DNA of 64,000 nucleotides from an uncultured Candidatus Saccharibacteria bacterium (GCA_964531785.1 CAZHFF010000001.1:84338-148337); one strand, 5' to 3'. Shown: positions 14,655-44,712, counted from the stretch's first letter. Notes: a model not told the origin generated them from the letters alone. A program made the numbers and translations.

Positions 14655-14812
14655 AAGATCAAAGGTCAAAAGGCAAAAATACAGTGCAAAGATAAAAAGT
14701 GAACGAGCACGTGTCACGAACATGCTCCCGGGAAAATGATCAGGCCGGGTGTACAGTGTAGTTGAATTTTGACCTGCACTTATGTATTTTGATCTTCGCC
14801 ATTTTGAATGGT
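14655..14812. repeat. AT-rich palindromic intergenic element (copy A) between convergent ATPase and trehalase genes.
   Basis: Left arm GATCAAAGGTCAAAAGGCAAAAATACAGTGCAAAGATAAAAAGTGAAC. Right arm is an inverted, related copy built of CAAAAG/TCAAAGG words. Sharp AT island in a GC-rich genome. Confidence 0.5.
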
Positions 14813-14818
14813 GTTCGT

Positions 14819-16435
14819 CTAGTCCTCGAACACCACCTCGCTCGATATCTCGTACCGATCGAGGAAATCGAGCGTCACCGCATTGGTCCAGCCAAAGCCG
14901 TCCTGGATACCATACTCACCACCGCCGGCGAGCTCGTGGGGATCGTCGACATTATACTTCTCCAGCATCGCACCGAAGCGCTTGTACATGCGCTTCACCG
15001 CTTCGACCCATCGCTCCGCGATATCCCGTGCCAGGTCGGTCCTTCCGTACCGTTCAAGGCCCTCGACAGCAACATACTGGAGCGGTGCCCAGCCATTTGG
15101 CGCATCCCACTGCTCGCCCGAGGTGACGAGCGTGGTGACCAGGCCACCCGGCCGCAGGAAGCGCTCCCTGAGAACCGTCTCCATGCGGTCCGCTTGCTCG
15201 GAGGTCGCGATGTTCGCAAAGAGGGCATAGGTCCCTGCCAGGGTGAGGGCAGGGCTCCGCACCCCGGTCTCCCAACTGAGGTCTACATAGAAACCCCGCA
15301 CCTCGTCAAAAAAGTGCGTACGAAGTGCTTCAGTGCGGCGTTCCGCGCGAGCCCGGAAGGTCGCACTGCGCGCTGCATGATCCGCTCTGTCGTGCGCTCG
15401 AGCGAGCACCATTTCATAGAGTGCGAGGAGGCAGTTGAGATCGACCGGCGCAAGGCGGGTCGTTCTGGACGTCGCTCGTTCAAGTGGCTGGTCGCACCAC
15501 CTGCTCGAAAAGTCCCACCCGCTCTCTGCTGCGGCACGAAGGTCGCGATAGAGTACCGACCGCGGCGGGCTGCTCGGTGCCGTCCTGAGGTCATCCGCGA
15601 GCATCTCTTCGCGGGGTCGGTCGGACACGTCGTAGTACCGGTTGAGTATCTCGCCACTTGGCAGTCGTACCACATGCCGGTACGCGCTTGCGCCGCTCGT
15701 TTTGGGTGCGAGCTTATCCTCTCCGCGCATCCAATAGGCATACTCGCGCTCCATCTCGCCGAGGTAGCGTACCAGTATGTCCGGTCCGAGCTCGCGGGCG
15801 AGGAGTTCGACCATGAGCGCAAAGAACGGCTGATTGCTCCGGGTGAGGTAGTAGGTCCGGTTGCCGTTCGGTATATGGCCGTACCTGCGTATCAAGTGGG
15901 CGAAGTTCTCCACCATATGCTCGACCAGGCCATGTCGGCCGCTGTGTGCAAGACCCACCATCGTGAAGTACGAATCCCAGTAGTAGGTCTCACGGAACCG
16001 ACCGCCCGGAACGATGTAGGGTCGGGGAAGCGGCAAGAGCGACGACCCCGGGGTATAGGTGTCTTTCGTGCGGGTAAGCGTCGTCCAGGTACGTTCGATG
16101 TAGTCTCTGATGTCGTCGCGTTCGCCCGCCCGTTCGCGGGGTGTACGGGGGGTCATATCCTCGGGAAGCGTAAAGTACGTCTCCACGAACTGACTGTAGG
16201 AGAACTGCTTGGTCCGTGATTCCCGGGCATATGCGCGCAGGATCGCCCGGGTCGACATGCGGGGCACTGCGTCGGCGAACGATTTGTTATCGAGCGTCGC
16301 ATGGTGCCGCTGTGCCTGCTCGAAGAGCTCCCCATAGAGTTCCCACGGGGAGAGCGGGTGGCTCCGTCTGATCGGTAAGCGTATCCCGGCGTTTTTCAGC
16401 AGTTCGGTGACCATGCAGTTCTGACGTGCGGACAC
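14819..16435 (-). CDS. treA: Trehalase (glycoside hydrolase family 37).
   Basis: PGGRFRETYYWDSYFTMVGL signature and GH37 C-terminal region, 538 aa. Upstream on the minus strand is TGGTATAGT with a ~57-nt leader. Confidence 0.88.
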   Translation of the reverse strand: MSARQNCMVTELLKNAGIRLPIRRSHPLSPWELYGELFEQAQRHHATLDNKSFADAVPRMSTRAILRAYARESRTKQFSYSQFVETYFTLPEDMTPRTPRERAGERDDIRDYIERTWTTLTRTKDTYTPGSSLLPLPRPYIVPGGRFRETYYWDSYFTMVGLAHSGRHGLVEHMVENFAHLIRRYGHIPNGNRTYYLTRSNQPFFALMVELLARELGPDILVRYLGEMEREYAYWMRGEDKLAPKTSGASAYRHVVRLPSGEILNRYYDVSDRPREEMLADDLRTAPSSPPRSVLYRDLRAAAESGWDFSSRWCDQPLERATSRTTRLAPVDLNCLLALYEMVLARAHDRADHAARSATFRARAERRTEALRTHFFDEVRGFYVDLSWETGVRSPALTLAGTYALFANIATSEQADRMETVLRERFLRPGGLVTTLVTSGEQWDAPNGWAPLQYVAVEGLERYGRTDLARDIAERWVEAVKRMYKRFGAMLEKYNVDDPHELAGGGEYGIQDGFGWTNAVTLDFLDRYEISSEVVFED

Positions 16436-16549
16436 GCCTATACTTACGTTCTGTGGCTCAAGATATACCTATTTCACTATACCACGGGTGGGGCCGTTTT
16501 ATGCACCGAACGGCTATAATAAGGTGGGTCGCTCTGGTATACTGCACTC

Positions 16550-16891
16550 ATGCAGCGACCGGAGCCTTTTTCCGACCGGAGACGTCGACCTGGCGTGGCT
16601 CGTCGTGTGCTCCGTATCCTCTCGGCGCTCGGTCAGTTCCTCGCAGATCGCGTTGCTCGCGATGTGGCGGTCGTGGTCAGCGAGGTGCGCCTGTTCCTCG
16701 GTCTCACCCTGGTGTTAGGTGGAATACTTTCGTTCCGGACGAACCGATACTGCGATGGTAACGTGATCGATATGAGCGCGTGCACCCGGCCTGCTACCTA
16801 CTACTACTATCCGTTCTGGGCGATCGTGTTCGTGGTGCTCGGCGGTTTTCTCATCTGCCTCTGGTACCTGCGTCGCACCAGACAACCCTAG
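16550..16891 (+). CDS. Hypothetical small membrane protein.
   Basis: 113-aa ORF with two hydrophobic segments. TGGTATACT sits 6 nt upstream of the ATG, the same promoter-like arrangement seen at many other starts. Lies in the divergent region next to treA. Confidence 0.35.
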   Translation: MQRPEPFSDRRRRPGVARRVLRILSALGQFLADRVARDVAVVVSEVRLFLGLTLVLGGILSFRTNRYCDGNVIDMSACTRPATYYYYPFWAIVFVVLGGFLICLWYLRRTRQP

Positions 16892-16972
16892 CGAACGCAC
16901 GGTGTCATTGCAGTGATCCGCTGTCCACTGCAGTACTCACACCTACGTGCTGAGGTAGGGTATACTTGGAGT

Positions 16973-18430
16973 ATGCGCGCGTCATACCTGGTGGTAGCTC
17001 TTGTGTTCACGAGCTCTTTGGTCGGCGCTGCGTCGACCCTGCTTGCGAATAACCCGCCGATCATATCGAACGTCCGCATCGCTTCGACGACCAAGGATAC
17101 CGCAATTATCACCTGGAGCACCGATAAACCCGGCGATTCGCTCGTGAATTTCGGCAAGCAGCCGCACTACGGGATGATCCGCACGCCCGGGAACGACAAG
17201 ACCGAGCACTCGGTCAAGCTTGAGGATCTCGATTCTTCGACGATTTACCATTTTCGCGTGTCGACCGCTGACACGCTCGGGAATCAAGCGGTTTCCGGCG
17301 ATTTCGTGTTCATCACCGAGGGGTTTAAGGACATCGAGGATATCGAAGAGGTTTCGAGCACCGAGCAGAAGACGCTGGTCGGCCAGGCGAAGGCAGCGAT
17401 CGAGCGGATCACCGACCCCGATGCGCTCAAGCTCGTGCAGCAGGAGCTTACCGAGCAAGCGGCGGATCTCCTGCGACCGCCCGAGGTCATCGGCAACCCC
17501 CGAGCGATCGACATCACCTCGACCGAAGCGAAGATCGTGTGGGCGACGAGCCGCGAGAGCAGCTCGGTCGTGTATTACTCGACCGAGGCACAGTTTTCGG
17601 GCGGGGACTATGCGCAAAGCTCAGCGGACCTCGAGAACATGACCAAGGACCACGAGGTACTGCTCTCGGGCCTCCGGCCGGCCACCACATACCATTTCAA
17701 GGTGTACTCGGAGGACGAGTTCGGCCTGTCGGGCGAGAGCGGTGATGTCACCTTTACCACCAAATCACCGCTTCCAACGATCGAGGATGTCCAGATAATC
17801 AAGATCGAGGAGGATAGCGCCACGTTCGCTTGGTCGACCGATATCCCCGCCGCTGGAGCGGTCATCTACGAGAACACGGTCACTGGTGAGATACGGTCCG
17901 AGGGAAGTCCCGAATTTCTGACGACCCAGACCGTGCGGTTGACCGACCTGACGTTCGGTGCGACCTATGTCGCTACGGTGCGTGCGGAGAACGAGCAAGG
18001 TGAGCCTTCTGAGAGCGAACCGATCACGTTCACGACCGTCCGCGACGAGGAACCGCCTCTGATAAGTCGGGTGAACAACGAATCGACCCTCTATCCAGGG
18101 GCCGAGACGCGTATTCAGACCATTGTCAGTTGGGGTACTGATGAACCCAGCTTCTGTAATCTGGCGTATAGCGAGGGTCTGGCGCCTGCCGAGAATGCTG
18201 TAGAGCTGGCGAGGAATGCCGATCCGGCGATCGACCACGTGCGGGTCATTACTGAGTTCCTGCCATCGACCGTGTACAAGTTCTGGGTCACCTGTGAGGA
18301 TAGGTCAGGCAACAGCGAGCGCTCAGAGGATTTCGTGCTCTTCACCCCGGAAAAAGAGAAGAGCATTATCGACATCATCCTTGAGAACTTTGAAGGTACC
18401 TTCGGCTGGGTGAAGAACATCGGGAAGTAG
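16973..18430 (+). CDS. Secreted protein with four fibronectin type III-like (purple-acid-phosphatase N-terminal-like) repeats.
   Basis: Start moved to the signal-peptide Met (MRASYLVVALVFTSSLVGAAS), with GGGTATACT 6 nt upstream. Four repeats of the form I.W.T..P....V.Y.........YHF[RK]V. Confidence 0.65.
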   Translation: MRASYLVVALVFTSSLVGAASTLLANNPPIISNVRIASTTKDTAIITWSTDKPGDSLVNFGKQPHYGMIRTPGNDKTEHSVKLEDLDSSTIYHFRVSTADTLGNQAVSGDFVFITEGFKDIEDIEEVSSTEQKTLVGQAKAAIERITDPDALKLVQQELTEQAADLLRPPEVIGNPRAIDITSTEAKIVWATSRESSSVVYYSTEAQFSGGDYAQSSADLENMTKDHEVLLSGLRPATTYHFKVYSEDEFGLSGESGDVTFTTKSPLPTIEDVQIIKIEEDSATFAWSTDIPAAGAVIYENTVTGEIRSEGSPEFLTTQTVRLTDLTFGATYVATVRAENEQGEPSESEPITFTTVRDEEPPLISRVNNESTLYPGAETRIQTIVSWGTDEPSFCNLAYSEGLAPAENAVELARNADPAIDHVRVITEFLPSTVYKFWVTCEDRSGNSERSEDFVLFTPEKEKSIIDIILENFEGTFGWVKNIGK

Positions 18431-18569
18431 TTCAAAATGCAAAAGTTAAAGATCAAAAGTACAAGGCAAAATCTAGAAGTGCATCATAGTGCACCGTGTG
18501 GTTCGCTCAGTACTTTTAACTTTTTACATACACTTTTGCATCTTGCCCTCTGATTCTTGACATTTCATT
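18431..18569. repeat. AT-rich palindromic intergenic element (copy B).
   Basis: TTCAAAATGCAAAAGTTAAAGATCAAAAGTACAAGGCAAAAT ... inverted partner GTACTTTTAACTTTTTACATACACTTTTGCATCTTG. Confidence 0.5.
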
Positions 18570-20006
18570 ATGCGCGCTATCATCACCACAGAGAACGTCG
18601 ACGTGACCTATAACGCAGGTAAGTCGAACGAATTCAAGGCACTGGTCAATGTCTCGGTCGAGATCGCCGCGCGCGAGTACATCATTTTCTTCGGCCCCTC
18701 CGGTTGCGGTAAGTCGACCTTGCTCTACTCGATCTTTGGGGTTCTGGCACCAACCTCGGGCAAGGTCGTGGTGAAGGGAGACTCGATCTATGACTATGAG
18801 CCGATGGACCTGGTGATGTACCAGCGGAAGACGATGGGCATCATGTACCAGTCGTTCAACCTTATCCCCTCGCTCACCGTGCTCGATAACGTCCAGCTAC
18901 CGCTCATTTTCGCGGGGTTTCCTCCGTCCGTACGGGAGGGCAGGGCGATGGACCTGCTCGATCGGTTCGGTATCGCACACGTTGCCCACAAGCGCCCTGC
19001 ACTCCTCTCCGGAGGTCAGCAGCAGCGCGTTTCCGTGGCTCGCAGCCTAGTGAACGATCCGGAGATCCTTATCGCAGACGAGCCGGTCGGTAACCTCGAC
19101 GCGGTCTCCGCAGAAGCCGTTATGAACACGCTCGAGGAGATCAACCGTCACGACAAGAAGACGGTGCTTCTCGTGACGCACGATGCGAAGTACCTCCCGT
19201 ACGCGCACCGCGTGTTCTACCTTGACTACGGGAAGGTCGACCGCATCGTGCCGAACCCGGAAAAGCGCCAGATCATCAAGGTTCGTCCCGGCGAGACGAT
19301 CGTCACTGAGATCGAGCAGCTTGCCCGCATCTATCCGTACGACACGCCCGAGCAGCTGCGCGTCAAGAGCCTGATCAATTACCTCACCCAGAACCTCTCG
19401 TTCGATCAGATCGTACGGCTCGAACATATGACCCAAAAGGTGATCGAAGGCGTGCTCGGCGAGGAGCACTTCAGGACCATGCTGGTGACCGACTACGAGC
19501 AGGGCGGGTGCGGTATCAAGCCGGAGCAGGCGACACTGATGACCCAGCGCATGTACCAGATACTCTCACAATCGGGCGATGTGGTGCGTTTCCGACGCGT
19601 CACGCGTGATCAGAACACGATAGACTTAGAACGTACCGAGCTTGTGAAGCACATTCACGGGTACATGGTCGAAGAATGTAAGATCGCCGCAGATTCGCGC
19701 CTGCTCGAGCGTTTGACCAAAATGGTGACCGCACGCGTGTATGGCTACATAACGCGCGAGGAATTCCATCGTCAGCTTCGCCTGTCAGCAGACGAAGGTG
19801 GTGGCGGGTTCGACATCTACCTTGCTGCGGACCTCTCGCGATACCTCGAAAAGCTCATCGCTCAAGGGGTGTCGCACTTCTCGCAGCACCAAGAGGCGAA
19901 ACCGTCGTCAACGAACCTACATGCCGCACAGGCCAAGAAGTTCGAAGAGATGGATAAGGGTATACTGAGTAAACTGACGGGGATGCTGCATCGGCACAAG
20001 AAGTAA
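18570..20006 (+). CDS. ABC transporter ATP-binding protein (MacB/LolD/FtsE-like) with a ~250-aa C-terminal extension of unknown function.
   Basis: Walker A GPSGCGKST, signature LSGGQQQRV, Walker B ILIADEP. About 250 extra C-terminal residues with no recognisable motif. Confidence 0.85.
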   Translation: MRAIITTENVDVTYNAGKSNEFKALVNVSVEIAAREYIIFFGPSGCGKSTLLYSIFGVLAPTSGKVVVKGDSIYDYEPMDLVMYQRKTMGIMYQSFNLIPSLTVLDNVQLPLIFAGFPPSVREGRAMDLLDRFGIAHVAHKRPALLSGGQQQRVSVARSLVNDPEILIADEPVGNLDAVSAEAVMNTLEEINRHDKKTVLLVTHDAKYLPYAHRVFYLDYGKVDRIVPNPEKRQIIKVRPGETIVTEIEQLARIYPYDTPEQLRVKSLINYLTQNLSFDQIVRLEHMTQKVIEGVLGEEHFRTMLVTDYEQGGCGIKPEQATLMTQRMYQILSQSGDVVRFRRVTRDQNTIDLERTELVKHIHGYMVEECKIAADSRLLERLTKMVTARVYGYITREEFHRQLRLSADEGGGGFDIYLAADLSRYLEKLIAQGVSHFSQHQEAKPSSTNLHAAQAKKFEEMDKGILSKLTGMLHRHKK

Positions 20007-20148
20007 GTCCAAAGTTCAAATCTCAAAATCCAAAATGACAGTCCAAATTGAAAAAAACATGAAAACAAGCAAACATTGTCACGTGCAGTCTTTACTTTTG
20101 AACTTTACATTGTAATTTTGGACCTTGGACTTTAATTTTTAAACTTCT
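20007..20148. repeat. AT-rich palindromic intergenic element (copy C), between the ABC ATPase and permease genes.
   Basis: GTCCAAAGTTCAAATCTCAAAATCCAAAATGACAGTCCAAATTG ... inverted partner ...TTTTGAACTTTACATTGTAATTTTGGACCTTGGACTTT. Confidence 0.5.
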
Positions 20149-21357
20149 ATGAGGATCCAAGACATTGCAAAGCTCTCGACGCGTATGTTCAAGACGAACC
20201 CTGCGCGTACCTGGCTTACGATCCTCGGCATGGGCGTCGGTACCGGAGCGGTCGTGACGCTCGTGGGCTTGGGTTTCGGCCTTCAGAACATCATCCTCGA
20301 GCAGATCGTCTTCGGTGAGACGCTCCTGTCGCTCAATGTGACACCTCCGCCGTCCCGTTCCGTCGACCTGAACCCGCAAACGGTACAAGAATTCTTTGAG
20401 ATCGAACGGGTGAACGATGTGGCTCCGATGGCAAGCTTTGCAGCGCTCATCACCTACGAGGGACTGACGGGCAATACCTTTCTCCAGGGGGCAAACCCGG
20501 CGTTTTTGCGGTTCACAGGCGCAAAAGAGGTGGCGGGGAGGCTCTTTGACGACAAGACCCTTGCCGAGGATACAGGGAGCGTGCTCCTCTCGAGCGCCAT
20601 GCTCAAGCTCTTCGAGGTGGAAGACCCCGAGGAGGCTATTGGGAAGCAGGTCTCGTTCAGGGTCTTTGTGCCGGTCGCGGGGACGAACGACACAAAGGAA
20701 GCAGAGCTGCGTAAGCGCTACACTATCGTTGGTGTTACGAACGAGGAGAGTCGACCTACCGCGATGGTGCTCCTTGATGAACTCTCGACCCAGCTCCAGG
20801 TTTCGAGCTATGAGCGTGTCCAGGTGCGTGTCGAAGCAAGCGAGTACCTCGACCAGGTCTCAGAAGCCATCGTCGAGCGTGGGTATGGTGTGACCGCACT
20901 CTCGAAGACCGTTGAACAGGCGAACAAGATCTTCCAGGGCATCCAGGCGGTGCTGGCGGTCTTTGGTGGTATCGCACTCGTCGTTTCTGCGATAGGTATG
21001 TTCAACACTATGACCGTCACCCTCCTCGAACGTACGGGAGAGATCGGTATCATGCGTACCCTCGGCGCATCATCGAACGATATTCAGATATTGTTCGTTT
21101 CCGAGGCCGTGATCGTGGGTTTTTTGGGAGGCATCGTCGGCATTTCGATCGGAGTCGGTATCGGTTTTGCGCTCAATACGATGGTCAATGTGGCAGCATC
21201 CAATTTCGGCGGTAAGGCGGTAGCGCTGTTCGCCTACCCGATCCCGTTCATCCTGTTCATCGCCGCGTTCTCAGCAATAGTCGGGTTTCTCACGGGAGTG
21301 TTCCCGGCACGGCGCGCGGCAGGGCTCAATCCGCTCGATGCTATCAGGTACAAGTAA
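20149..21357 (+). CDS. ABC transporter permease, MacB/FtsX family.
   Basis: N-terminal TM, large periplasmic domain, C-terminal FtsX-like 3-TM region (RTLGASSNDIQILFVSEAVIVGFLGGIVGI). Directly downstream of the ABC ATPase. Confidence 0.85.
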   Translation: MRIQDIAKLSTRMFKTNPARTWLTILGMGVGTGAVVTLVGLGFGLQNIILEQIVFGETLLSLNVTPPPSRSVDLNPQTVQEFFEIERVNDVAPMASFAALITYEGLTGNTFLQGANPAFLRFTGAKEVAGRLFDDKTLAEDTGSVLLSSAMLKLFEVEDPEEAIGKQVSFRVFVPVAGTNDTKEAELRKRYTIVGVTNEESRPTAMVLLDELSTQLQVSSYERVQVRVEASEYLDQVSEAIVERGYGVTALSKTVEQANKIFQGIQAVLAVFGGIALVVSAIGMFNTMTVTLLERTGEIGIMRTLGASSNDIQILFVSEAVIVGFLGGIVGISIGVGIGFALNTMVNVAASNFGGKAVALFAYPIPFILFIAAFSAIVGFLTGVFPARRAAGLNPLDAIRYK

Positions 21358-21420
21358 CGTGGTGAAAAGTCAGAACGTAAAGAGCAACGTCAAAAGTGCA
21401 GGTCAATATTCACTAGAACC
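21358..21420. repeat. AT-rich element, half copy (copy D), downstream of the permease gene.
   Basis: GAAAAGTCAGAACGTAAAGAGCAACGTCAAAAGTGCAGGTCAATATTCAC shares the word structure. The inverted partner is weak. Confidence 0.35.
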
Positions 21421-21686
21421 GCGCACCAACCGCTCGACGGTTCCAAGAGCATAACGGTGACGCGCAATCGTCTCCTCTCATCCTTCACCTCGCACTGCTG
21501 CACGTTGCCTCTTGACCTATGCATGTCTTCTGATTATTTCGCAATACCCACGTGCCCCGCCCACGCCCTTTGATGCAGGATACCGTGCCCTGCTGCCTGC
21601 CAGCACGTTATCCACACATACTAGGTGAGTTTCCCCCCTTGTTTTCCACTTTACGGTATACTTTCATAAAGCCCCGTACGGAGCGT

Positions 21687-23567: not shown

Positions 23568-23616
23568 GGGGTGTTGTGATCGAATCGTGCTGCTTTGGTG
23601 CATGGTAGCGGGAGGT

Positions 23617-23642
23617 AGAGCGGGCAACCGCTTTTTCTTTTG
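23617..23642 (+). terminator. Candidate Rho-independent terminator after the 21687..23567 gene.
   Basis: AGCGG-gcaa-CCGCT stem followed by TTTTTCTTTTG. Confidence 0.45.
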
Positions 23643-23784
23643 CATAAATCTCCGTGACAGAGGTGAGGTTGCTGCCCACAAGTTGTCTACAGGCGCAAGG
23701 TAGGCGTGGTGTTGTTTTAGGGCTACAATCAAGGAACGAAGCCTTGGCTTCGGTTGGCGTATCGATAAGGTACAATATCACATA

Positions 23785-24831: not shown

Positions 24832-24834
24832 AGT

Positions 24835-26123: not shown

Positions 26124-27170
26124 ATGCGTGCGCTCAGAGCACCTCTGTTTCTGCTACTTGCCGTGTATATGCTGCCGTTTCCGGTACAAGCGGCGCGGGT
26201 GTACCTTGACCCTGGTGCGACCGAACAAGGCAGGCTCGATACGTGGTACCTTCCGGTACGGATCGACACCGAAGGAGCCTGTATCAATGCGGTCACGGTG
26301 AAGGTGAACTATGACCCTGCGCTCGTGAGCGTGATCGATACCTCGCGTGGCAACTCGATCATACCGCTCTGGGTAGATCACCCGAGCGTCGCCCGTGAAG
26401 AAGCGGACCAAGAGGTCGGCGTCGTTTCTTTCACCGGGGGTATTCCTGGCGGCTATTGTGGCCGTGTCCTCGGTGATCCGGGCCAGACCAATACGCTTCT
26501 CACGCTTGTGGTGACAGGCGCGTCGGGCGGGCGGCCGCTCGAAGTCCCGGTCAAGACGCTCTTTACGCTCGATCCGACCACGACCGCATACCTGCACGAT
26601 GGGACCGGCATGGCAGCTGCCATGACGCTCCTCGGGACCGAGGTCACGCTCTATGAGGGCACCAGCACTCCGGCGAACGTCTGGCTCGATGAGGTGCGGA
26701 GCGATACGATCGCGCCTGAGCTGTTCGACATCACCCTCGTACGCGGTCCTTCTGAGGGAAATGTTCGCCACTACATCGTCTTCTCGACGACCGATAAGCA
26801 GAGCGGGATCGATCACTATGAGGTCCGTGAGACCGATCCGCTGCGTTTTGGCTTCCTGACGCTCTTTCCGGACAAGAGCAGCTATTGGATCGAGGCATCA
26901 AGCCCCTACATTCTGCGCGACCAGACACTGCGATCGAAGATCCTGGTCAAAGCCGTCGACAAGAACGGCAATGAGCGGATCGTGACGCTCATGCCAGAAC
27001 TCGATCCACTGGAGCGCGTGCTCCACCCGACCATACTCGCCCTCCTTGCGGTGATCATCGGAGTCCTGGCGTTGATCATCGTCCTGTATACGCGAAGGCG
27101 ACGCACGACGAAACGTCCCGAAACCTTAGGCGGCGAACCCCATGACCATGAAACACAAGATCGTCCTTAG
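26124..27170 (+). CDS. Cohesin-like domain surface protein with C-terminal TM anchor.
   Basis: Start at MRALRAPLFLLLAVYMLPFPVQAA, a signal peptide, with GGGGTATACT 6 nt upstream. Cohesin-like pattern VYLDPGATEQGRLDTWYLPVRIDTEGACINAVTVKVNYDPALVSVIDTSRG. C-terminal TM ILALLAVIIGVLALIIVLY followed by RRRR. Confidence 0.6.
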   Translation: MRALRAPLFLLLAVYMLPFPVQAARVYLDPGATEQGRLDTWYLPVRIDTEGACINAVTVKVNYDPALVSVIDTSRGNSIIPLWVDHPSVAREEADQEVGVVSFTGGIPGGYCGRVLGDPGQTNTLLTLVVTGASGGRPLEVPVKTLFTLDPTTTAYLHDGTGMAAAMTLLGTEVTLYEGTSTPANVWLDEVRSDTIAPELFDITLVRGPSEGNVRHYIVFSTTDKQSGIDHYEVRETDPLRFGFLTLFPDKSSYWIEASSPYILRDQTLRSKILVKAVDKNGNERIVTLMPELDPLERVLHPTILALLAVIIGVLALIIVLYTRRRRTTKRPETLGGEPHDHETQDRP

Positions 27171-28980
27171 TTTCTTGTTCGCGCTTGGTGCGGTCGCGAA
27201 TGCGCCTCATGCAGCGCAGGCAGCGCAGGACGCGGGGCTCTACCTCACGCCGGCGACCGCCGTATTCCCGGTGGGCGAGCCTTTTACGGTCGAGGTTCGT
27301 ATCAGGAATACCGGTGGATCGATAGGTACGGCGGACGCTACGGTGGGATATGAGCCGTCGGATCTCGAGTTCGTTTCGTTCTCGTCGGACGGCTCGATCT
27401 TTGCGTCTATCATCGTCCCCGAAACGAACGAACGAGGTCGGGTCAAGGTCCAGGGCGTGGTCTCGCACGGGAGGTCTTGGAGCGGAGAAGACGGCCTGTT
27501 CGCGACCTTGACGTTCCGTCCGCTGCGGAGCACAGCGACCGAGCTGCGTTTTATGCAGGGTGCCGCGACACCGCTCATGGCGGCGGTCGGCGCATCGAAT
27601 GTCCTGTCACGGCTGGGAGCTGCGACCTACACGCTCGTGCCGAAGGAGATGGTACCTGCGCCAGCTGCGGTCATTGCGGCAACACCTGCTCAGGAGGGTT
27701 CGATCGAGATCACGCCACTTCCTTTGCCGGACGATGGCTGGTTCGGAACAACGTCCGTAAAACTCGCATGGTCCTTGCCTCAGTCGGTCACTGAGATGCG
27801 CACGATCCTCTCCGACAAGCCAGTCGACACGCCTTCAAAGCTGTACCCGGTCCCGGTCTCGTCGGTACTACTCGACGGTCTCGCTGAGGGGACCAACTAC
27901 TTCCATATGCAATGGAAACAGGAGGGGGTCTGGGGGCCCGTTACCCGCTATCCGATCAAGGTCGACCTGACGCCACCTGAACATGTGATCGTGACCGAAG
28001 CCGATCGAACCGACCCGACCGACCCGCGCGCAGCGTTCGTGATCGACAGTGCGGACCTGCTCTCTGGCATCAGTAGCTATTTGATCTCGATCGACAACGA
28101 TGAGCCCGAGGTCTGGGAAAAGAGCAAGGACGAGCTCTATCGTCCGCAGGGTCTTACACCGGGGAGTCACTTGATCACGGTCACTGCACGCGATCGCGCA
28201 GGGAACACGAAGACCGCAGAGCTCGAGTTCCTCGTGCGGTCGCTCGACCCACCTACCATGACCCGCTCTCCTGACCACGTCCTTGCCGGCAACCAGATCA
28301 CCATCGAGGGAACGACCTACCCGAACGCTGAGGTCACGACGTACATCAGTTTCAAGGATGGGGAAGCGACCGAAAAGAAGGTGCGGAGCGATGCGTCGGG
28401 CGCGTTCATCGTCACACTGACCGAGGAGGCACGTCCGGGCAAGTATACCATCTGGTTCTCCGTTGCTGATGAGCGCGGCGCGGTGAGCCCGCCCTCGATC
28501 AAACGGTCGGTCACGGTGACGCAGCCGTATATCATGCTGTTCGGGTCGACCGCGGTCACGTACATGTCGGTGATCGTGCCGCTCGTCGGCCTCATCCTGC
28601 TCCTTGGTTTGATCCTTTGGCTGCTCTACACCTATGTGCGCGGCTACCGAGCCCGCGTTCGGCGTGAGACCGACCAAGCGTACCGTGCGGTCCAAGACGA
28701 GTTCAGCAACCTCGAACAGGACATGGTCAAGCAGATCGGCGTGCTCGAGCAGGCGAACCATGCACGTAAGCTGACCCGCGAAGAGCTCCGCATCCTGACC
28801 GAGCTACGCGAGAAGCTGAACAAGATACAGGAGCACATCTCATCAGAGATCGATGATATCGAGCCGGTCGCACACGAACTCCGGGTACCACCAAAGCGAC
28901 AACGTGAAGAAAGCGCTCTCGCTCGAGTGCGCGAAACGCAGCCGTCGAAACGGACGATAACGATCGAACGAGTGAGGTAA
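27142..28980 (+). CDS. Cohesin-like domain surface protein with Ig-like domains, a TM anchor and a cytoplasmic coiled-coil tail.
   Basis: Signal peptide. LYLTPATAVFPVGEPFTVEVRIRNTGGSIGTADATVGYEPSDLEFVSF resembles a cohesin. TM VIVPLVGLILLLGLILWLLY, then a charged helical tail. Confidence 0.6.
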   Translation: MTMKHKIVLSFLFALGAVANAPHAAQAAQDAGLYLTPATAVFPVGEPFTVEVRIRNTGGSIGTADATVGYEPSDLEFVSFSSDGSIFASIIVPETNERGRVKVQGVVSHGRSWSGEDGLFATLTFRPLRSTATELRFMQGAATPLMAAVGASNVLSRLGAATYTLVPKEMVPAPAAVIAATPAQEGSIEITPLPLPDDGWFGTTSVKLAWSLPQSVTEMRTILSDKPVDTPSKLYPVPVSSVLLDGLAEGTNYFHMQWKQEGVWGPVTRYPIKVDLTPPEHVIVTEADRTDPTDPRAAFVIDSADLLSGISSYLISIDNDEPEVWEKSKDELYRPQGLTPGSHLITVTARDRAGNTKTAELEFLVRSLDPPTMTRSPDHVLAGNQITIEGTTYPNAEVTTYISFKDGEATEKKVRSDASGAFIVTLTEEARPGKYTIWFSVADERGAVSPPSIKRSVTVTQPYIMLFGSTAVTYMSVIVPLVGLILLLGLILWLLYTYVRGYRARVRRETDQAYRAVQDEFSNLEQDMVKQIGVLEQANHARKLTREELRILTELREKLNKIQEHISSEIDDIEPVAHELRVPPKRQREESALARVRETQPSKRTITIERVR

Positions 28981-29025: not shown

Positions 29026-29754
29026 CTAGGACCAAAAGAGTACGAGGCCGCCGAGCCGGGTTGAGTCAGCCATGTTCGAGATGATGATCGCAAGGTCGGC
29101 GAGCGTTATCTTGCCGTCCTGATCAAGGTCGTACTGCGCCTCGTAGGCGAGGAACAGCCTTGACGAAACGATGCCAAAGTCGATCAGGTTGACCTGCGCA
29201 TCACCGTTTATATCGGGTGAGGGTGCCGACGCTTCCCGTACCGAGAGGATGATCGGACTTTTTTTGCTGGTGAGCTCTGTGCCCTGTCCGTCGTGGGCGA
29301 GTACGTGCGCCTCCCCCCAGAGCACGCTCGCCTTACCCTGTTCGAGCGGACGGAGCGTGAGCGTGAAGAGCGTCCCGGACCCGGTAAAACCGGTCGGAGA
29401 GACGACGCCGCCTGCAAATCGTAGCTCGCCGTCCTTCAGCACCGGTTCCTCTGCCCAGAGGTCAATGATCGAGCCGTCGTAGGCGATCCGCTCGACCACG
29501 AACTTGTCCATAGGCACAGCGATCGTGCCGCTCACCACGTTGATCGGCTGCTTGCTCGCTAGGTTGACCTGGAGCGTAACCTGCTCACCGACCGCAACGA
29601 AGCGCCCATCTTCGGGTACCAGGTACACGTCATACGGGCTTCGTATGAAGGAGAGCGATGTTGCCAATAGAACGATGACCGGCAGGCCTACTGCCAGGGT
29701 GTACCTATGGCGCAACAGCTGGTGTGTTACCATCCGGAACATCAGTACCTCCAT
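29026..29754 (-). CDS. Signal-anchored protein carrying both a cohesin-like domain and a C-terminal dockerin; possible adaptor.
   Basis: Start moved to MEVLMFRMVTHQLL...LAVGLPVIVLLATSL, a TM segment. Cohesin-like YLVPEDGRFVAVGEQVTLQVNLASKQPINVVSGTIAVPMDKFVVERIAYDGS. Dockerin repeats DINGDAQVNLIDFGIV and DLDQDGKITLADLAIIISNM. Confidence 0.55.
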   Translation of the reverse strand: MEVLMFRMVTHQLLRHRYTLAVGLPVIVLLATSLSFIRSPYDVYLVPEDGRFVAVGEQVTLQVNLASKQPINVVSGTIAVPMDKFVVERIAYDGSIIDLWAEEPVLKDGELRFAGGVVSPTGFTGSGTLFTLTLRPLEQGKASVLWGEAHVLAHDGQGTELTSKKSPIILSVREASAPSPDINGDAQVNLIDFGIVSSRLFLAYEAQYDLDQDGKITLADLAIIISNMADSTRLGGLVLFWS

Positions 29755-29835
29755 AGTACCAGGAACAGGATCCCTGTGGAGCCTGTGCTGGTGATAACTC
29801 GGTCCGCATGCTCGCGACGCGCGTATACTGGAGGT

Positions 29836-30351
29836 ATGAAGAGCGTCCTGGTGGTCGGTCTGTTCTGCTTGGTGTGCCTGCTCGGTTTTGGTATCTGGTA
29901 CTACAGCGACCCGAGTCCGGAACCAGCAAGCGACGAGTCCAGTGTTCCTCCCGATGGGATCCCGGTGCCGATCTACTTTTACCAGCAAGCGACCGATGTC
30001 GATCAGAACGGTAACCTGCTGTGCTCCCGCAAGGGTGTCGTGTCCGTGCGACGCTACCTGCCACCGAGCCACACCTTGGCTGATCGTATCGAGCTCGTGC
30101 TTGGCGGCAAGCTTACGGCGAACGAGCGCGCGCAGGGCATCGCGACCGAGTATCCGCTCGCCGGCGTGCGGCTCGTGAGTGCGGTCATTGAGAACCGTAA
30201 GGCGATACTCACGTTCGAGGATGTGCTCGGCAAGACGAGAGGTGGAGCGTGTCGTTCGGCCATCCTTTGGTACCAGCTCGAGCAGACCGCGCTCTCGTTC
30301 GGAGAGGTGCGCGATGTCGAGTTCCGGCCTTCCAGTCTGTTCCAGCCCTAA
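29836..30351 (+). CDS. GerMN domain protein, signal-anchored.
   Basis: Start at MKSVLVVGLFCLVCLLGFGIWYY. CGTATACT then GGAGGT precede the ATG. GerMN-like pattern (IPVPIYFY...LVLGG.LTANERAQGIATEYP...ILTFEDV...VEFRP). Confidence 0.55.
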   Translation: MKSVLVVGLFCLVCLLGFGIWYYSDPSPEPASDESSVPPDGIPVPIYFYQQATDVDQNGNLLCSRKGVVSVRRYLPPSHTLADRIELVLGGKLTANERAQGIATEYPLAGVRLVSAVIENRKAILTFEDVLGKTRGGACRSAILWYQLEQTALSFGEVRDVEFRPSSLFQP

Positions 30352-30915: not shown

Positions 30916-31287
30916 CTCTTGGCACAGGAAAACCCCGCACAGGGCGGGGCGTTCGGTTGAGCGAAGAGCTCAGAGGAGCAATCGCTGGCAATAGCTCGTG
31001 AGCCAGGTCGGCAGGACCGGTTCGATGAGGTGAACCTCTTTGAGTGTGCGCAAGAGGTGTCGCAGCTCGTCCGTCGATACCGTGTTCTCCGTTTCGTACC
31101 AAGCCTGCATCACTACGTCGGACACGTTAACGCGGAGGCGTTCCGCCGTTAGGGTGAGCAGTCCCATGGTGCTCGTCATGTTCGGTTTCCGTGCTGGTTG
31201 CCTCTTGGAACCATACGACAGCTTCAAGTCCGGTGCAACCTGCACGGTTTCCGTCCCGGTGCTACGCTACAAGGTCCGTCGCAGCCG

Positions 31288-33539: not shown

Positions 33540-33584
33540 AAAAGAGTGCAGTACTCAAGGAGAGTACCGCACAGGTCCGTTCAG

Positions 33585-34800: not shown

Positions 34801-34870
34801 GTTGTGCACTTTTTACTTTTGAGCTGTACTTTTGCCTTTTGATCTTTGCATTTTAACCTGCTCTTGCATC
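34801..34870. repeat. AT-rich element (copy E, reverse orientation) overlapping the 3' end of the SET-domain gene.
   Basis: GTGCACTTTTTACTTTTGAGCTGTACTTTTGCCTTTTGATCTTTGCATTTTAACCTG is the reverse complement of a sequence closely related to copy A (GATCAAAAGGCAAAAGTACAGCTCAAAAGTAAAAAGTGCAC). Confidence 0.5.
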
Positions 34871-35310
34871 AAAGCTTTATCCCTACACCCTTTACACTTA
34901 CACCCATACGGCTTGATGAACTCATCGACATACTCTTTGCCGTAATCGTAGGTCAGCTCTTCGCCTGGCTGTATCACGCGTCGCGCTTTGATGAACACCC
35001 GCTTGCTGGCAAGCACAGATTCGCAGTTAGCCCGTGCGCATTGGTGGTTGATGTAGCGTGCGAGGTTCGTTCGGGCGCTTCCGTCTATCGTCCAGCGTGC
35101 ATTCACTTCGAACAGGTACTTGGTCTTCCAGCCAAGGATCGCCTCGTTCCGGTACAAGGTACCCGTGTACTCGAGGTACTGGCCGGGTTCGATGCGTGAG
35201 GTCGCGAACAGTCCCAGACCGGCGCTCGACCGACCGATGCGAACGTGGGTACGGGGTATGGTGCGCGTGCGTCGTACGTCCATATGGCGCTCTATCGTAG
35301 CACGGACCAC
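34813..35310 (-). CDS. SET domain protein (putative protein-lysine methyltransferase).
   Basis: RYINHQCARANCE (NHxC motif), ELTYDYG, post-SET CKCKGCRDK. The last ~15 codons lie inside an AT-rich repeat element. Confidence 0.75.
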   Translation of the reverse strand: MVRATIERHMDVRRTRTIPRTHVRIGRSSAGLGLFATSRIEPGQYLEYTGTLYRNEAILGWKTKYLFEVNARWTIDGSARTNLARYINHQCARANCESVLASKRVFIKARRVIQPGEELTYDYGKEYVDEFIKPYGCKCKGCRDKALMQEQVKMQRSKGKSTAQK

Positions 35311-36724: not shown

Positions 36725-36788
36725 CAGGAGTTTAACGGGCAATGCCTCGTGCACTGCTTACGACCCTCGGGTCTGCACTTTATACAAT

Positions 36789-39209
<2,421 letters not shown>

Positions 39210-39271
39210 AACATGTGGTGATACAACAGAACCGCCGCTTGGGTGCGGCGGTTCGTGGTACACTGGTCCCT

Positions 39272-40276: not shown

Positions 40277-40332
40277 TACCTCCGGCCAAGGTTACATACC
40301 GGTCGCCGGTTACTAACGTTATTCGTATACCT

Positions 40333-41622: not shown

Positions 41623-41837
41623 TGAAGTGCACGGCCGCATACACCGTTCGGATGTTTGCCTGAACGGTGCTTTGTCACGCCCATGAACCGATTCGCCTGT
41701 ATTTGCGAAGCTTATTCGACCGCATGTTTTGCACTTAGGCAAACCTGTTTTGGGATAGGTAATGCACAGTACGAACGATAGGGGCTGGGGTACAATGACA
41801 AGCACCGACTCCCATTACATCATAACCATAGAACGAT

Positions 41838-44249
41838 ATGGCAAGTTCGTCGTCCCATACAGCAACAAAAAAGAAAGCGCATGCCCCCAAAGATGCGATC
41901 GAGGAGATATTCGAGCCTCGTGAAGATGTGGTCGAGCAGGGTGCGAGCAAAACTGACGGCGCTACTTACTATGCCAAGTTCGTTCCGGTGATACAGAAGC
42001 GCGACGGCTCGATCGTACCGTTCGATTTTTCGAAGATCGTGCGTGCGGTCAGTATGGGAATGACCGCAGCAGGCGAAGGTTCTCCTGAAGAAGCTGAAAT
42101 GGTGTCGCACCGAGTTGTGGCTGATGTTGTGCGCATCACGAAAAAGTACAAGAACTTCCTCCCGACCGTCGAGGGCATCCAGGACGAGGTCGAACGACAG
42201 CTCATCTACTCCGATTATGTAAAAACGGCCAAACACTATATCCTTTACCGTGAAGAGCGCACCCGATTGCGTAAGCACACCGTCGCGATCCCGGCACATG
42301 TCCGGCAACTTGCCGAGGAGAGTGCCAAGTATTTTGAGGGTAATCCGCTCGGCGAGTTCGTCTACCTCAGGACGTATGCGCGTTGGATCGATGCTGAGAG
42401 CAGGCGAGAGACCTGGATCGAGACCGTCGATAGGTATATGGCGTTCATGCGCGAGAACCTCGGGGACAAGCTTACTGAGGAGGAGTATGCCGAGGTGCGT
42501 GAGGCGATCCTGAAGCAGGAGGCGATGCCCTCGATGCGTCTCTTACAGTTTGCGGGCGGCCCGGCGCGTCGTTGCAATGCGACCGCATACAACTGTTCGT
42601 TCATAGCCCCGTCCACGCTGGAGGATTTCGGCGAGGTGCTCTACCTCTCGGCCTGTGGTTGTGGGGTCGGATTCTCTGCCGAGAGCAAGAACATCGAACA
42701 ACTGCCTCAGATCAAGGCACAGACCGGCATTATGCTGAAGACGCACGTGGTCGAGGATTCTAAAGAGGGCTGGGCGCGAGCCTTGGTTCACGGTCTTGAG
42801 ACGTGGTACGGCGGCAAGGACGTCCAGTTCGACTACAGCCAGGTCCGTCCCGCAGGGACACGTCTGAAGACCATGGGTGGCAAAGCTTCCGGGCCGGAGC
42901 CGCTCCGTTCACTTTTGGACTTCGCCCGCGCAAAGATCCTTTCGCGCCAGAACCGTCGCTTGCGCAACATCGATGCGCACGACATCCTATGTAAGATAGG
43001 CGAAGCTATCGTTTCAGGAGGAGTCCGGCGGAGCGCCATGATCTCGCTCTCCGACCTCGACGATGATGACATACGTCATGCAAAGGATGGGGCGTTCTAC
43101 AACACCGATCCGCACCGCATGCTCGCTAATAACAGCGCGGTCTATGAACAGAAACCGACGAGCGAAGAATTCATGGAGGAATGGATGGCGCTCATGAAGG
43201 GAAAGAGCGGAGAGCGGGGCATTTTCAATCGGGGCGGTCTCATGGCACAGCTTCCCAAGCGACGCCTCGATCAGTGGCGCAAGGAGGGTCTCATCGAGAA
43301 CGATCGGATCGTGGGGCCGGTCGGTACCAACCCCTGTGGCGAGATCATCCTCAAGTCAAAGCAGTTCTGTAATCTCTCCGAGGTGATAGCGCGAAGGAAC
43401 GATACGCTCGCTTCGCTCAAGCGAAAGATCCGTATCGCTGCTATCCTGGGCACCTACCAATCTTCGCTCACGAACTTCAACTACCTGTCAAAGACCTGGA
43501 AGGAAAACTGCGAGAGCGAGCGGCTGCTTGGCGTTTCAGTGACCGGACAGTGGGACTCGCCTGAATCGCGAAAGCCGGAGGTCTTGCGCGAGCTTCGGGA
43601 CGAGGCGATTGCGGTCAATCGGAAGTACGCAAAGCGATTCGGCATCAATCCCTCGACCGCGGTGACCGCGGTAAAGCCTTCCGGTACGGTGAGTCAGACC
43701 GTGAACTGTGCGTCCGGCATGCATCCGCGCCACAGCGAGTACTATATTCGGCGTATCCGTATCACCGCGACCGATGCGCTCTTCAAGATGCTCAAGGACC
43801 AGAACGTCCCGTTCCATCCGGAGATAGGCCAAACGATGGAGAATGCGAACACGTTCGTTATTGATTTTCCAGTGAAAAGTCCGAAGTCTTCCGTGTATAA
43901 CGATGACCTCTCGGCGATCGAACAGCTCGAGTACTGGAAGGTCGTCAAGGAGAACTACACCGAACATAACCCGTCAGTGACCATTACGATCGGTGACAAT
44001 GAGTGGGTCGGTGTTGCGAACTGGCTTTACGAGAACTGGGACATGATCGGCGGACTCTCGTTCTTGCCGCGCATGAACCACGCCTACCGTTTAGCCCCCT
44101 ATGAAACCATCACCAAAGAACAGTACGAGGAGCTCGCAAAACGGTTCGAGCATATCGATTACAGCAAGCTCGTGACCTATGAGTTCAAGGACGAGACCGA
44201 ACAAGCCAAGGAGCTCGCATGTGCTGGTGGCACTTGCGAGATAAACTAA
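41838..44249 (+). CDS. nrdJ: Ribonucleoside-diphosphate/triphosphate reductase, class II (adenosylcobalamin-dependent) with N-terminal ATP-cone.
   Basis: ATP-cone (VIQKRDGSIVPFDFSKIVRAV), active-site GTNPCGEIIL, C-terminal redox Cys pair CAGGTCEIN, 803 aa. No adjacent small-subunit gene. Confidence 0.8.
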   Translation: MASSSSHTATKKKAHAPKDAIEEIFEPREDVVEQGASKTDGATYYAKFVPVIQKRDGSIVPFDFSKIVRAVSMGMTAAGEGSPEEAEMVSHRVVADVVRITKKYKNFLPTVEGIQDEVERQLIYSDYVKTAKHYILYREERTRLRKHTVAIPAHVRQLAEESAKYFEGNPLGEFVYLRTYARWIDAESRRETWIETVDRYMAFMRENLGDKLTEEEYAEVREAILKQEAMPSMRLLQFAGGPARRCNATAYNCSFIAPSTLEDFGEVLYLSACGCGVGFSAESKNIEQLPQIKAQTGIMLKTHVVEDSKEGWARALVHGLETWYGGKDVQFDYSQVRPAGTRLKTMGGKASGPEPLRSLLDFARAKILSRQNRRLRNIDAHDILCKIGEAIVSGGVRRSAMISLSDLDDDDIRHAKDGAFYNTDPHRMLANNSAVYEQKPTSEEFMEEWMALMKGKSGERGIFNRGGLMAQLPKRRLDQWRKEGLIENDRIVGPVGTNPCGEIILKSKQFCNLSEVIARRNDTLASLKRKIRIAAILGTYQSSLTNFNYLSKTWKENCESERLLGVSVTGQWDSPESRKPEVLRELRDEAIAVNRKYAKRFGINPSTAVTAVKPSGTVSQTVNCASGMHPRHSEYYIRRIRITATDALFKMLKDQNVPFHPEIGQTMENANTFVIDFPVKSPKSSVYNDDLSAIEQLEYWKVVKENYTEHNPSVTITIGDNEWVGVANWLYENWDMIGGLSFLPRMNHAYRLAPYETITKEQYEELAKRFEHIDYSKLVTYEFKDETEQAKELACAGGTCEIN

Positions 44250-44252
44250 TTT

Positions 44253-44367
44253 CAGCTCGTCCAGAATTGGCGGATACCATTGTCGCCTGCGTTGTCGACC
44301 CCTTCACCGTATGCGTGTACGGCTGAGGGGTACGACTTCCTGGGCTTCTCGATCTTCATCCAATTCT
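44253..44367 (+). other. Large hairpin immediately 3' of nrdJ: 18-bp perfect stem around a structured ~79-nt loop. Possible terminator or small structured RNA.
   Basis: CAGCTCGTCCAGAATTGG at 44253..44270 pairs with CCAATTCTGGACGAGCTG at 44350..44367. The loop contains further GC-rich stems. Confidence 0.4.
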
Positions 44368-44426
44368 GGACGAGCTGGTCGCTTCTGTAATTGCACGTCG
44401 GTGCAGGTGACCTTGTCGGCGTGACT

Positions 44427-44712
44427 AAGTTCAAAGGTCAAAACCAACGGCAATAGTACAGGTCAAAATGTAAAAGTGATCACGCAATAGGGCGATGTCT
44501 ACCCCACACCTTCCGGCAAGTAAGGATGGTCGTCGTAACGATAGGGGAAAAAGTAAGTTCAATTTAGACGACACCAGGAGAGCTGTGACAAAAATACGCT
44601 CTATGGTTATGCAGCTGTGCATAATGCAAAGAACCGCGGCCAACTTTTTGAGCTTCGATCAGGCCCTTTGATTTTGGCTCGCACTTTTGTCTTTTGACCT
44701 TTGAATTCAGTT
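44427..44712. repeat. AT-rich element pair (copy F) with ~190-bp spacing, in the nrdJ-smc intergenic region.
   Basis: Left arm AAGTTCAAAGGTCAAAACCAACGGCAATAGTACAGGTCAAAATGTAAAAGTGATCAC. Right arm CACTTTTGTCTTTTGACCTTTGAATTCAG. Confidence 0.5.

Follow-up and report, generated by a model that had tools for sequence, protein, structure and literature searches.

We found that six intergenic loci, A to F, in a 64,000-nt stretch of DNA from an uncultured Candidatus Saccharibacteria bacterium (GCA_964531785.1 CAZHFF010000001.1:84338-148337) carry a real, well-defined dispersed repeat family. This 64-kb stretch is referred to as the window, and all window counts refer to it; the six loci total 987 nt of it. 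Together they hold ten clear copies and one degenerate copy of an A-rich unit of about 50 nt. Five of the six loci are inverted pairs, the A-rich arm coming first in all five, and locus E is a solo unit. With a probability of roughly 0.5, we read the loci as a non-autonomous, spacer-colonising family that resembles repetitive extragenic palindromic (REP) sequences and bacterial interspersed mosaic elements (BIMEs), its main effect being a bidirectional RNA hairpin. An earlier note on this DNA had listed the six loci, and all of them are present where it placed them; it missed the heptad phasing, the insertion polymorphism relative to related genomes and the occurrence of the unit outside the source genome.

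The evidence for a family came from several searches. The motif search that the earlier note had proposed as a check was run over the window with a profile hidden Markov model (HMM) of the ten arms, and it matched only those arms (E 1e-11 to 1.4e-7). The sole extra weak match (21505-21523, E = 5.6) lies within the degenerate right arm of locus D, which pairs with the left unit in the predicted fold. In leave-one-locus-out profiles the omitted arms were the best non-training matches, with E from 6e-9 to 0.1, and a 2.4-kb AT-rich island at 58.9-61.3 kb gave zero matches in these searches. The 19-mer CAAAGRTCAAAAGRCAAAA, allowing at most 3 mismatches, occurred 4 times against 0.02 expected from shuffles, and the pattern WWAGTRCAGNTCAAWA 6 times against 0.44. 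When the ten arms were aligned in one orientation (alignment A1), they showed a common word order, and the non-repetitive landmarks GTACAG and GTAAAAAGTGCAC were common to several copies. A repeat finder independently returned D1 (5 copies), I3 (58 nt, 72%) and I4 (45 nt, 84%). The last of these is the left unit of locus A against unit E; the two had been called near-identical over ~45 nt, and at 84% identity over 45 nt they are similar only. Most of the six loci are the sharpest AT-rich islands of the window, apart from the low-GC island near the tmRNA gene; locus D, contrary to its earlier description, is not sharply AT-rich. These results show that the copies have a common origin.

The opposite view is that there is no family, and that A-rich heptamers slipped independently at each site against a generic AT-rich intergenic composition. 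Heptamer arrays arise readily in bacteria (PMC4692102, PMC4679880), and period-7 arrays of unrelated words are common in relatives of the source genome. However, the word order is conserved with its irregular non-repeat landmarks included, omitted arms are recovered by the remaining ones, no other AT-rich DNA is matched, and the pattern counts lie far above those of shuffles. The conserved order and the enrichment over shuffles contradict the generic-composition scenario, which had been named in advance as what would refute the family, and we find the view scarcely credible.

The consensus of the unit is approximately TCAAAGGTCAAAAGGCAAAAGTACAGGTCAAAAGTAAAAAGTGCAC, which reads by words as ~(T)TCAAAGG TCAAAAG GCAAAAG TACAGNT CAAAAGT AAAAAGT GCAC. 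A makes up 47% of it, and its 7-nt words, about six or seven, keep a fixed order. The 7-8-nt words by which the loci had first been recognized are indeed 20-220 times denser within the loci than outside, but they are not mere 7-8-mers. They are phased with period 7, as identity at lag 7 within the arms was 0.441 and that of shuffles 0.312 (z = 7.3); lag 13-14 gave a further peak, and the words are spaced by 7, 7 and 13. Tandem Repeats Finder (TRF) reported just 2.4-4.3 imperfect copies at the window loci. The outer unit ends read TTCAAA, GATCAAAGG or GTCCAAAG, GTAG not being conserved, and locus F has a perfect 14-nt terminal repeat, TTCAAAGGTCAAAA.

The units are modular, and their linkers are unrelated. 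Arms within one locus were no more alike in pairwise scores than arms from different loci, and the linkers were mutually dissimilar (local alignment of the five loops scored at most 14, which is chance level). Separation of the arms is about 14 nt in B and C, 50 in A, 62 in D and 169 in F. This agrees with the usual arrangement stated before, two inverted copies 10-200 bp apart, for five of the six loci, although the right arm of D had been overlooked. The 169-nt loop of locus F holds no convincing open reading frame (ORF) or Pfam match. Unit E had the highest pairwise scores to the remaining units, as is expected of a young copy.

Comparison with related genomes shows that the copies were gained. 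Our sample of relatives comprised 80 related loci (1.37 Mb), in which the arm profile had a sole, weak match, in L037, at the site orthologous to locus B. The spacer between the ABC ATPase and permease genes, which locus C fills, is 142 bp here. Five of the seven closest relatives, L002-L006 (permease 79-84% identical), have 53, 12, 4, 24 and 6 bp there, and the other two, L007 and L008, have 210 and 319 bp. Over the whole sample this spacer measures 1-30 bp in about 45 of the 80 loci and 100-450 bp in about 22, and the FN3-ATPase junction is likewise 1-30 bp in many relatives. The presence or absence difference that had been anticipated was thus found at the ATPase-permease spacer, and the copies were gained relative to the closest relatives. 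Many of the 100-450-bp spacers are heptad arrays in inverted arrangement made of other words, namely AATAGAG/CTCTATT (L045, L067), TTTCTAT (L049), TCTAAAT/TCCAAAT (L046) and TAGAAAG (L078), and L008 has a T-rich-first version. Among periods that are not multiples of 3, the relatives had 33 arrays of at least 4 copies with period 7, against 4 with period 5 and 2 with period 8. A search of the relatives' TRF arrays for a purine-first order yielded few pairs.

The end of one gene also carries the mark of a unit. In the SET-domain gene at 34813-35283 (- strand), unit E encodes the last ~19 codons and the stop codon. The protein has a tail of ~23 residues past its CxCxxC motif, the last ~19 residues (LMQEQVKMQRSKGKSTAQK) being element-encoded; homologues end 1-12 residues past this motif, with one outlier that has a longer unrelated tail. 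It had been proposed that the element overwrote the end of the gene. Tail and stop codon do lie in the element, but the gene is better described as extended and terminated by it, and the SET domain and CxCxxC motif are intact, which is consistent with an insertion-type effect of unit E on the gene end. In L210, the closest available relative at this locus (SET protein 76% identical), a different heptad array (AGATTTT) lies 3' of the SET stop codon. An A-rich-first palindrome (2395-2585, z = -3.5) occupies the divergent spacer between the MOFRL/DUF4147 and SET genes of the same relative.

The sites of the units are given in Table 1. Loci B, C and D fill, from stop to next start, three successive spacers of the FN3-ATPase-permease-next cluster, directly adjoining stop and start codons. 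The genes on either side of locus A are convergent, and locus F separates the ribonucleotide reductase and SMC genes. The loci follow stop codons, in line with the gene 3' ends, the ATPase-permease junction among them, where they had been placed before. None of the 5 divergent spacers of the window has a copy, although the numbers are small.

Table 1 Copies of the A-rich unit in the window. E values are from nhmmer with the profile of all ten arms and with the locus concerned left out.
Unit	Position	Strand	nhmmer E	Left-out E	Setting and remarks
Locus A left unit	14655..14706	+	1.4e-7	8.8e-6	A-rich on + strand; 66 nt past stop of P-type ATPase gene (11836-14589)
Locus A right unit	14757..14812	-	1.1e-9	1.2e-4	A-rich on - strand; end 6 nt from stop of convergent trehalase gene (14819-16435, - strand)
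Locus B left unit	18430..18490	+	1.6e-9	1.8e-5	begins on last stop-codon base of FN3/purple-acid-phosphatase-like gene (16913-18430)
Locus B right unit	18505..18569	-	7.6e-9	0.027	T-rich on + strand; abuts ABC ATPase gene, last base just before ATG (18570)
Locus C left unit	20007..20070	+	9.2e-8	0.11	TCCAAA-word variant; immediately 3' of ABC ATPase stop codon; TRF: period 7, 4.3 copies
Locus C right unit	20085..20148	-	2.9e-8	0.011	last base just before ATG (20149) of MacB/FtsX-type permease gene
Locus D left unit	21358..21420	+	1e-8	0.006	degenerate, GC-richer; immediately 3' of permease stop codon
Locus D right arm	21483..21549	-			strongly degenerate; coordinates approximate; ends shortly before GTG at 21552
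Locus E solo unit	34801..34870	-	1.1e-11	5.9e-9	most consensus-like
Locus F left unit	44427..44485	+	8.9e-10	3.1e-6	178 nt past ribonucleotide reductase stop codon (44249)
Locus F right unit	44655..44712	-	3e-9	5.5e-5	50 nt upstream of SMC gene ATG (44763); extended -10-like TGGTATACT in between

Predicted folding was compared with that of shuffled sequences, from which all fold z-scores derive. None of the ten single arms was more structured than shuffles (0 to -7.4 kcal/mol, z -0.59 to +1.39), and the pairs were predicted to form long, interrupted, AU-rich hairpins. Folding of the inverted pairs, another check suggested at the outset, was significant for locus A (-49.1 kcal/mol, z = -3.41), B (sense -32.8 kcal/mol, z = -3.22; antisense -41.2), D (21355-21552; -57 kcal/mol, z = -3.75, left unit paired with right arm) and F (-85 kcal/mol, z = -2.28), but not for C (sense -22 kcal/mol, z = -1.18; antisense -35.2 kcal/mol). 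Unit E, with no partner arm, had z = -0.33. The predicted stems of loci B, C and D have at their base the stop codon of the upstream gene and the start codon of the downstream one. The antisense strand folded equally well or better, so there is no evidence for a strand-specific RNA, and a sense RNA structure was rejected. Compensatory evolution between the arms of a locus was also rejected. Cognate arm duplexes were unexceptional (-29.3 versus -25.7 kcal/mol, rank 16 of 120), and neither similarity nor duplex energy within loci exceeded that between loci; pairing is therefore a consequence of family membership, without visible compensatory maintenance. Apart from tmRNA, Rfam gave nothing at gathering threshold in the window, and nothing at E <= 1 in 14500-21650; identity with CRISPR or an Rfam family was rejected.

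Outside the lineage, a 19-mer common to three arms matched at least 120 metagenome stretches. In contigs of 55-66% GC among the matches listed, it formed part of longer arrays built from these words. Of the metagenome matches listed, 28 had a T-rich inverted array downstream and 2 had one upstream, and solo arrays among them showed no 3'-end bias (20 versus 15, a noisy count from crude gene calls). Identical arrays recurred in several metagenome samples (L105, L153, L163), with no length polymorphism. A GC-rich match from Acidobacteriota, L102 (Vicinamibacterales-like permease, 74-75% identity), carries the three-word core, and some Acidobacteria-type arrays begin GTAGGTCAAAGG. A viral origin was rejected, as IMG/VR gave 2 matches to the 19-mer versus 5 for a reversed control. 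As a separate observation, L085 (7500-8300) and likewise L117, L110, L131, L103 and L200 are GC-rich (63%) soil contigs with long non-coding stretches filled with arrays of many different heptamers, among them AACCAAG, CATCTTA, CTTTTGG and CCACAGATT. A module that recurs in these contigs consists of the GC hairpin GCGCGTCGGACGCGC and then CAAAGGTCAAAAGGCAAAAGCCAAGAGTCAAAA.

The whole unit, including parts beyond the 19-mer, was present in three low-GC contigs (L126, L183, L189). Those of L126 and L183 share CAAAAGTAAAAAGT with unit E, and an alignment including the units of all three contigs (A3) had 70% mean column identity. L126 is from a Roizmanbacteria-like member of the Microgenomates (NusG 87% identical). 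L126 and L189 carry their units between genes of the secE-nusG-rplK-rplA cluster. Where the two arms occur together, the order is stop, A arm, T arm, start, and in L189 three successive genes are each followed by a unit. The same spacers measure 7, 4 and 2 nt in the Roizmanbacteria genome L211, and in L213, also Microgenomates, they (5657-5833, 6422-6487, 6914-7109) hold a different family (GAATTTTTGAAGTKAGAAGT..., CTTGAAT words) with the T-rich arm first; NusG of L211 and of L213 is each 87-88% identical to that of L126. Where repeats fill them, the spacers of this cluster are 105/34/96 and 177/66/196 nt long in organisms whose NusG is 87-88% identical. Judged by these matches, the ~50-nt unit occurs in other genomes of the candidate phyla radiation (CPR), and other CPR lineages have analogous heptad palindromes with different words.

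To account for these results, we propose that a ~50-nt A-rich, unstructured unit multiplied within a Parcubacteria lineage and settled in gene-end and intercistronic spacers, usually as two units head-to-head with the A-rich arm first. The spacers would be co-transcribed with the flanking genes, and the pair would fold into a long, imperfect AU-rich hairpin on the transcript from either strand. At loci B, C and D, the hairpin base would bring the upstream stop and the downstream start close together, which would explain the tolerated insertions in a normally tight gene cluster. The effect on RNA is likely transcript punctuation, whether as a 3'-exonuclease barrier, through partial termination on the U-rich 3' arm, or as a double-strand cleavage site. 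Such punctuation would be a by-product or a mild domestication, and not the reason for the existence of the family. [quoted passage not shown]

REP units are imperfect palindromes of 20-40 nt with a 5' GTAG, arranged in extragenic inverted pairs, with a cognate REP-associated tyrosine transposase (RAYT), which is a Y1 transposase. REP sequences, BIMEs and REPINs (REP doublets forming hairpins) of Enterobacteria and Pseudomonas were reportedly described by Stern in 1984, Gilson in 1991, Nunvar in 2010, and Bertels and Rainey in 2011. The loci in the window resemble them as short dispersed extragenic units, mostly in inverted pairs with unrelated linkers (14-169 nt) and also solo, that stand after stop codons and inside operons, can form long RNA or DNA hairpins, and vary in presence among relatives. 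Unlike REP sequences, the unit here is not itself palindromic, is A-rich and not GC-rich, is made of 7-nt words and has no conserved 5' GTAG. The REP/BIME-like character proposed earlier therefore holds for the organisation of the unit, which is not a member of the REP family by definition. MITEs such as Correia, RUP and ERIC are similar in their terminal inverted repeats of ~50 nt, total length of 140-290 bp, intergenic position, hairpin RNA and altered gene ends. In contrast to MITEs, the internal sequence here is not common to copies, arms also occur singly, and no parent insertion sequence is known; without target-site duplication and without a shared core, the loci are by definition not a MITE family.

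Several points weigh against this REP/BIME-like reading. Among ~30 proteins scanned within the window, there was no transposase or RAYT-like domain, and no target-site duplication was visible in the flanks of A, B, C and F as read. By itself the unit offers no hairpin that a Y1 transposase could recognise. Selfish spread alone does not explain the strict A-rich-first order (5 of 5 pairs here, and the same preference among the metagenome matches listed), and this rule hints at selection on transcript or DNA. Finally, the three-word core in Acidobacteriota could reflect convergence on a functional motif rather than shared descent.

That order is also what would be expected if the pairs were dedicated bidirectional, factor-independent terminators or attenuators. 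In such a terminator the hairpin would zip behind a weak rU:dA hybrid on the U-rich 3' arm, each CUUUUG word acting as a small U-tract, and the A-rich-first order would make the mechanism work both ways. Like bidirectional intrinsic terminators, the pairs have A-rich, pairing and U-rich parts in this order on both strands. Their positions fit as well, in that stop codons precede the units, convergent genes flank locus A and the 5 divergent spacers of the window are free of copies. In addition, the inner unit end (AAAAAGTGCAC) resembles the A-tract and stem start of a canonical terminator at 33546-33572. However, three pairs stand inside the conserved FN3-ATPase-permease-next cluster, whose FN3-ATPase and ATPase-permease junctions are 1-30 bp in many relatives, and neither B nor C has a sigma-70-type promoter-like match or an extended -10 box between pair and start codon. 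Compact GC-rich terminators already serve other convergent spacers (33546-33572, 30932-30950, 48115-48138). The stems are AU-rich and interrupted, fold no better in sense than in antisense, and are not significant at C. An A-first palindrome occupies the divergent spacer of L210, T-rich-first versions exist in the relatives L008 and L213, and solo arrays in the broad metagenome set lack a 3'-end bias among the matches listed. Unlike in intrinsic terminators, it is the A-rich and U-rich tracts, each ~50 nt long, that make up the stem, a GC-rich core followed by a U-tract seems to be lacking in the sense direction, and most copies lie inside a conserved gene cluster. A consensus scan found core hairpins followed by T-runs in A and B on the minus strand only, which is antisense for B. 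Of the AU-rich terminator hairpins suggested before, the hairpins are thus supported for A, B, D and F (z -2.3 to -3.75); a dedicated terminator role is not, and we consider it possible but unlikely.

A promoter role for the T-rich arm, with its repeated TTGAC, was rejected, as no properly spaced -10 precedes the genes after B and C. Promoters of the source genome resemble TGnTAnnnT boxes 6-11 nt before ATG. Shine-Dalgarno motifs are nearly absent in the window, and many genes have an extended -10-like TGnTATACT or a TACAAT box that ends 6-11 nt before the ATG (for example upstream of 16550, 23785, 32367, 36789, 44763, 47083 and 48451-50400, - strand). This suggests that leaderless or very short-leader mRNAs are the norm in the source organism. 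Given so few Shine-Dalgarno motifs and boxes so close to ATG, the usual rules for operon spacers may not apply.

The heptad phase brings in a different class of known repeats. Heptanucleotide repeats include the short tandemly repeated repetitive (STRR) sequences of cyanobacteria, the TAACTGA repeats of Beggiatoaceae (PMC4679880) and the GGGAATC repeats of Xanthomonas, for which inverted arrangements have been noted (PMC4692102). They are over-represented in bacteria (Mrazek 2007 as cited in PMC4679880, PMC4692102). Like these STRRs and long simple sequence repeats (LSSRs), the unit has a 7-nt periodicity, is intergenic, often stands beside start codons and belongs to lineage-specific word sets, and relatives of the source genome have classic perfect heptad arrays. 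Unlike them, the array here is degenerate, frozen in a fixed order of ~50 nt and copied to many sites, and its units are not a near-perfect tandem expansion of one word. By its sequence, the unit seems to belong with the heptanucleotide repeat arrays of other bacteria, and it would form a link between REP/BIME-type dispersed palindromes and the heptanucleotide repeat excess, which are usually treated apart.

The arms might be arrays of binding sites for a protein with a 7-nt register on nucleic acid, the conserved words being its recognition sites. Candidates would be a cold-shock-domain or S1-type binder of single-stranded RNA, or a DNA protein associated with the nucleoid or with RNA polymerase. 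The arms keep strictly to the 7-nt phase, a single arm has unusually little structure, as fits a single-strand binding platform, and the repeated TTGAC of the T-rich arm would suit the DNA-protein variant. The same three words occur in CPR classes of 35-60% GC and in Acidobacteriota, and TAACTGA heptamer repeats have been proposed as S1, Csp or CsrA sites (PMC4679880). Against this, no candidate protein is linked to the loci within the window, and related lineages have different words at the same spacers (AATAGAG, TAGAAAG, TCTAAAT, CTTGAAT), which is unexpected for a conserved binding partner. Furthermore, heptad excess has an accepted mutational cause, namely polymerase slippage (Mrazek 2007 as cited in PMC4679880, PMC4692102). 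We hold this explanation to be improbable. A wider version, to which we give long odds, is a cross-phylum system in which a conserved factor with a 7-nt footprint reads A-/U-rich heptad words at gene boundaries. This factor would bind RNA as a protein of the cold-shock or S1 type, or would be associated with polymerase, and the arrays would serve as gene punctuation in organisms without Shine-Dalgarno-led translation. A-rich-first palindromes would be the bidirectional form, and copying to new spacers would be part of the spread of the system.

One relative offers a further possibility. In L078, a related member of the Paceibacteria, a purine-rich TAGAAAG-type array and its inverted partner (2700-3132) in the ATPase-permease spacer enclose a gene for 114 aa that matches PF05635, '23S rRNA-intervening sequence protein' (E = 1.6e-30). 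The stem could thus be an RNase III substrate that cuts polycistronic RNA, as in 23S rRNA intervening sequences, larger versions carrying a small gene. The stems are long enough for RNase III, and their bases lie at stop and start codons in B, C and D. However, L078 is a single case, as tblastn found no second PF05635 gene in about 2 Mb of fetched loci, the stems are broken by many bulges, and the solo unit E cannot work in this way. We therefore see little chance that this is the right account. Identity with the TIGR (tandem interspaced guide RNA) arrays of CPR bacteria was rejected. Those consist of many tandem units of ~36 nt or stem-loop type with box C/D motifs and an adjacent Nop-domain Tas gene (PMC12045711), and the loci here are dispersed singly between housekeeping genes, with no tandem array and no Nop-domain match among flanking proteins.

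A REP/BIME-like family of this kind bears on several aspects of CPR biology. CPR genomes are very small and gene-dense, so one would not expect repeats in them that lengthen tight operon junctions from a few to 100-200 bases. The family offers a handle on the organisation of transcription and translation in these uncultured bacteria, and its repeats alter protein C-termini. With the unit in Parcubacteria and Microgenomates and its core in Acidobacteriota, either the unit moves between genomes or a common factor selects the words. As markers of insertion polymorphism between strains, the repeats would also help to track CPR populations, and comparable exact repeats break short-read assemblies, as where a Logan contig ends in a 26-bp perfect palindrome beside the tmRNA gene.

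The window is ~60% GC. Its genes include the conserved cluster of an FN3 protein, an ABC ATPase and a MacB-type permease, a P-type ATPase and a trehalase, as well as a class II ribonucleotide reductase, SMC, a SET-domain protein, cohesin and dockerin proteins, RNase R, SmpB and tmRNA. The closest relatives of the permease among 185,579 species genomes were metagenome-assembled genomes of Parcubacteria/Paceibacterota, with up to 84% identity, which makes the source organism a CPR (Patescibacteria) species without a representative among them. A Logan assembly of SRR9016294 was 100% identical to the window over 12.4 kb, and 4 kb of sequence adjoining the window was without elements. Between the ribonucleotide reductase stop codon and element F lies a GC-rich stretch of 177 nt (44250-44426) without a convincing ORF, perhaps the remnant of a gene or a 3' region with structure.

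A low-GC stretch at 58782-61413 (44-46% versus 60%) carries an NAGPA-like gene and a NUDIX gene. It is bracketed by two 53-nt copies of the tmRNA 3' end (58782-58834 and 61361-61413, 83% identical), next to the genes for tmRNA (61401-61811, - strand) and SmpB (62618-63067, - strand). From this layout it looks like an island integrated at tmRNA, although no integrase was seen. The perfect palindrome with a 26-bp stem lies at 61351-61407, and 61358 is the exact position at which the Logan contig breaks. An inverted repeat of 48 nt with 94% complementarity is present at 60994-61041 and 61308-61355. At the other end of the window, the gene at 94-7299 encodes a protein of 2401 aa whose sole domain match is DUF2341. 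Inside this gene a DNA segment of ~120 nt is repeated (1864-1985 and 4180-4301, 81% identical), and there are further repeats at a distance of 2316 nt. Genes for a cohesin-domain and a dockerin-domain protein are convergent neighbours (27142-28980 and 29026-30072, - strand), and cohesin genes likewise lie near the nusG cluster in the Microgenomates contigs L211 and L213.

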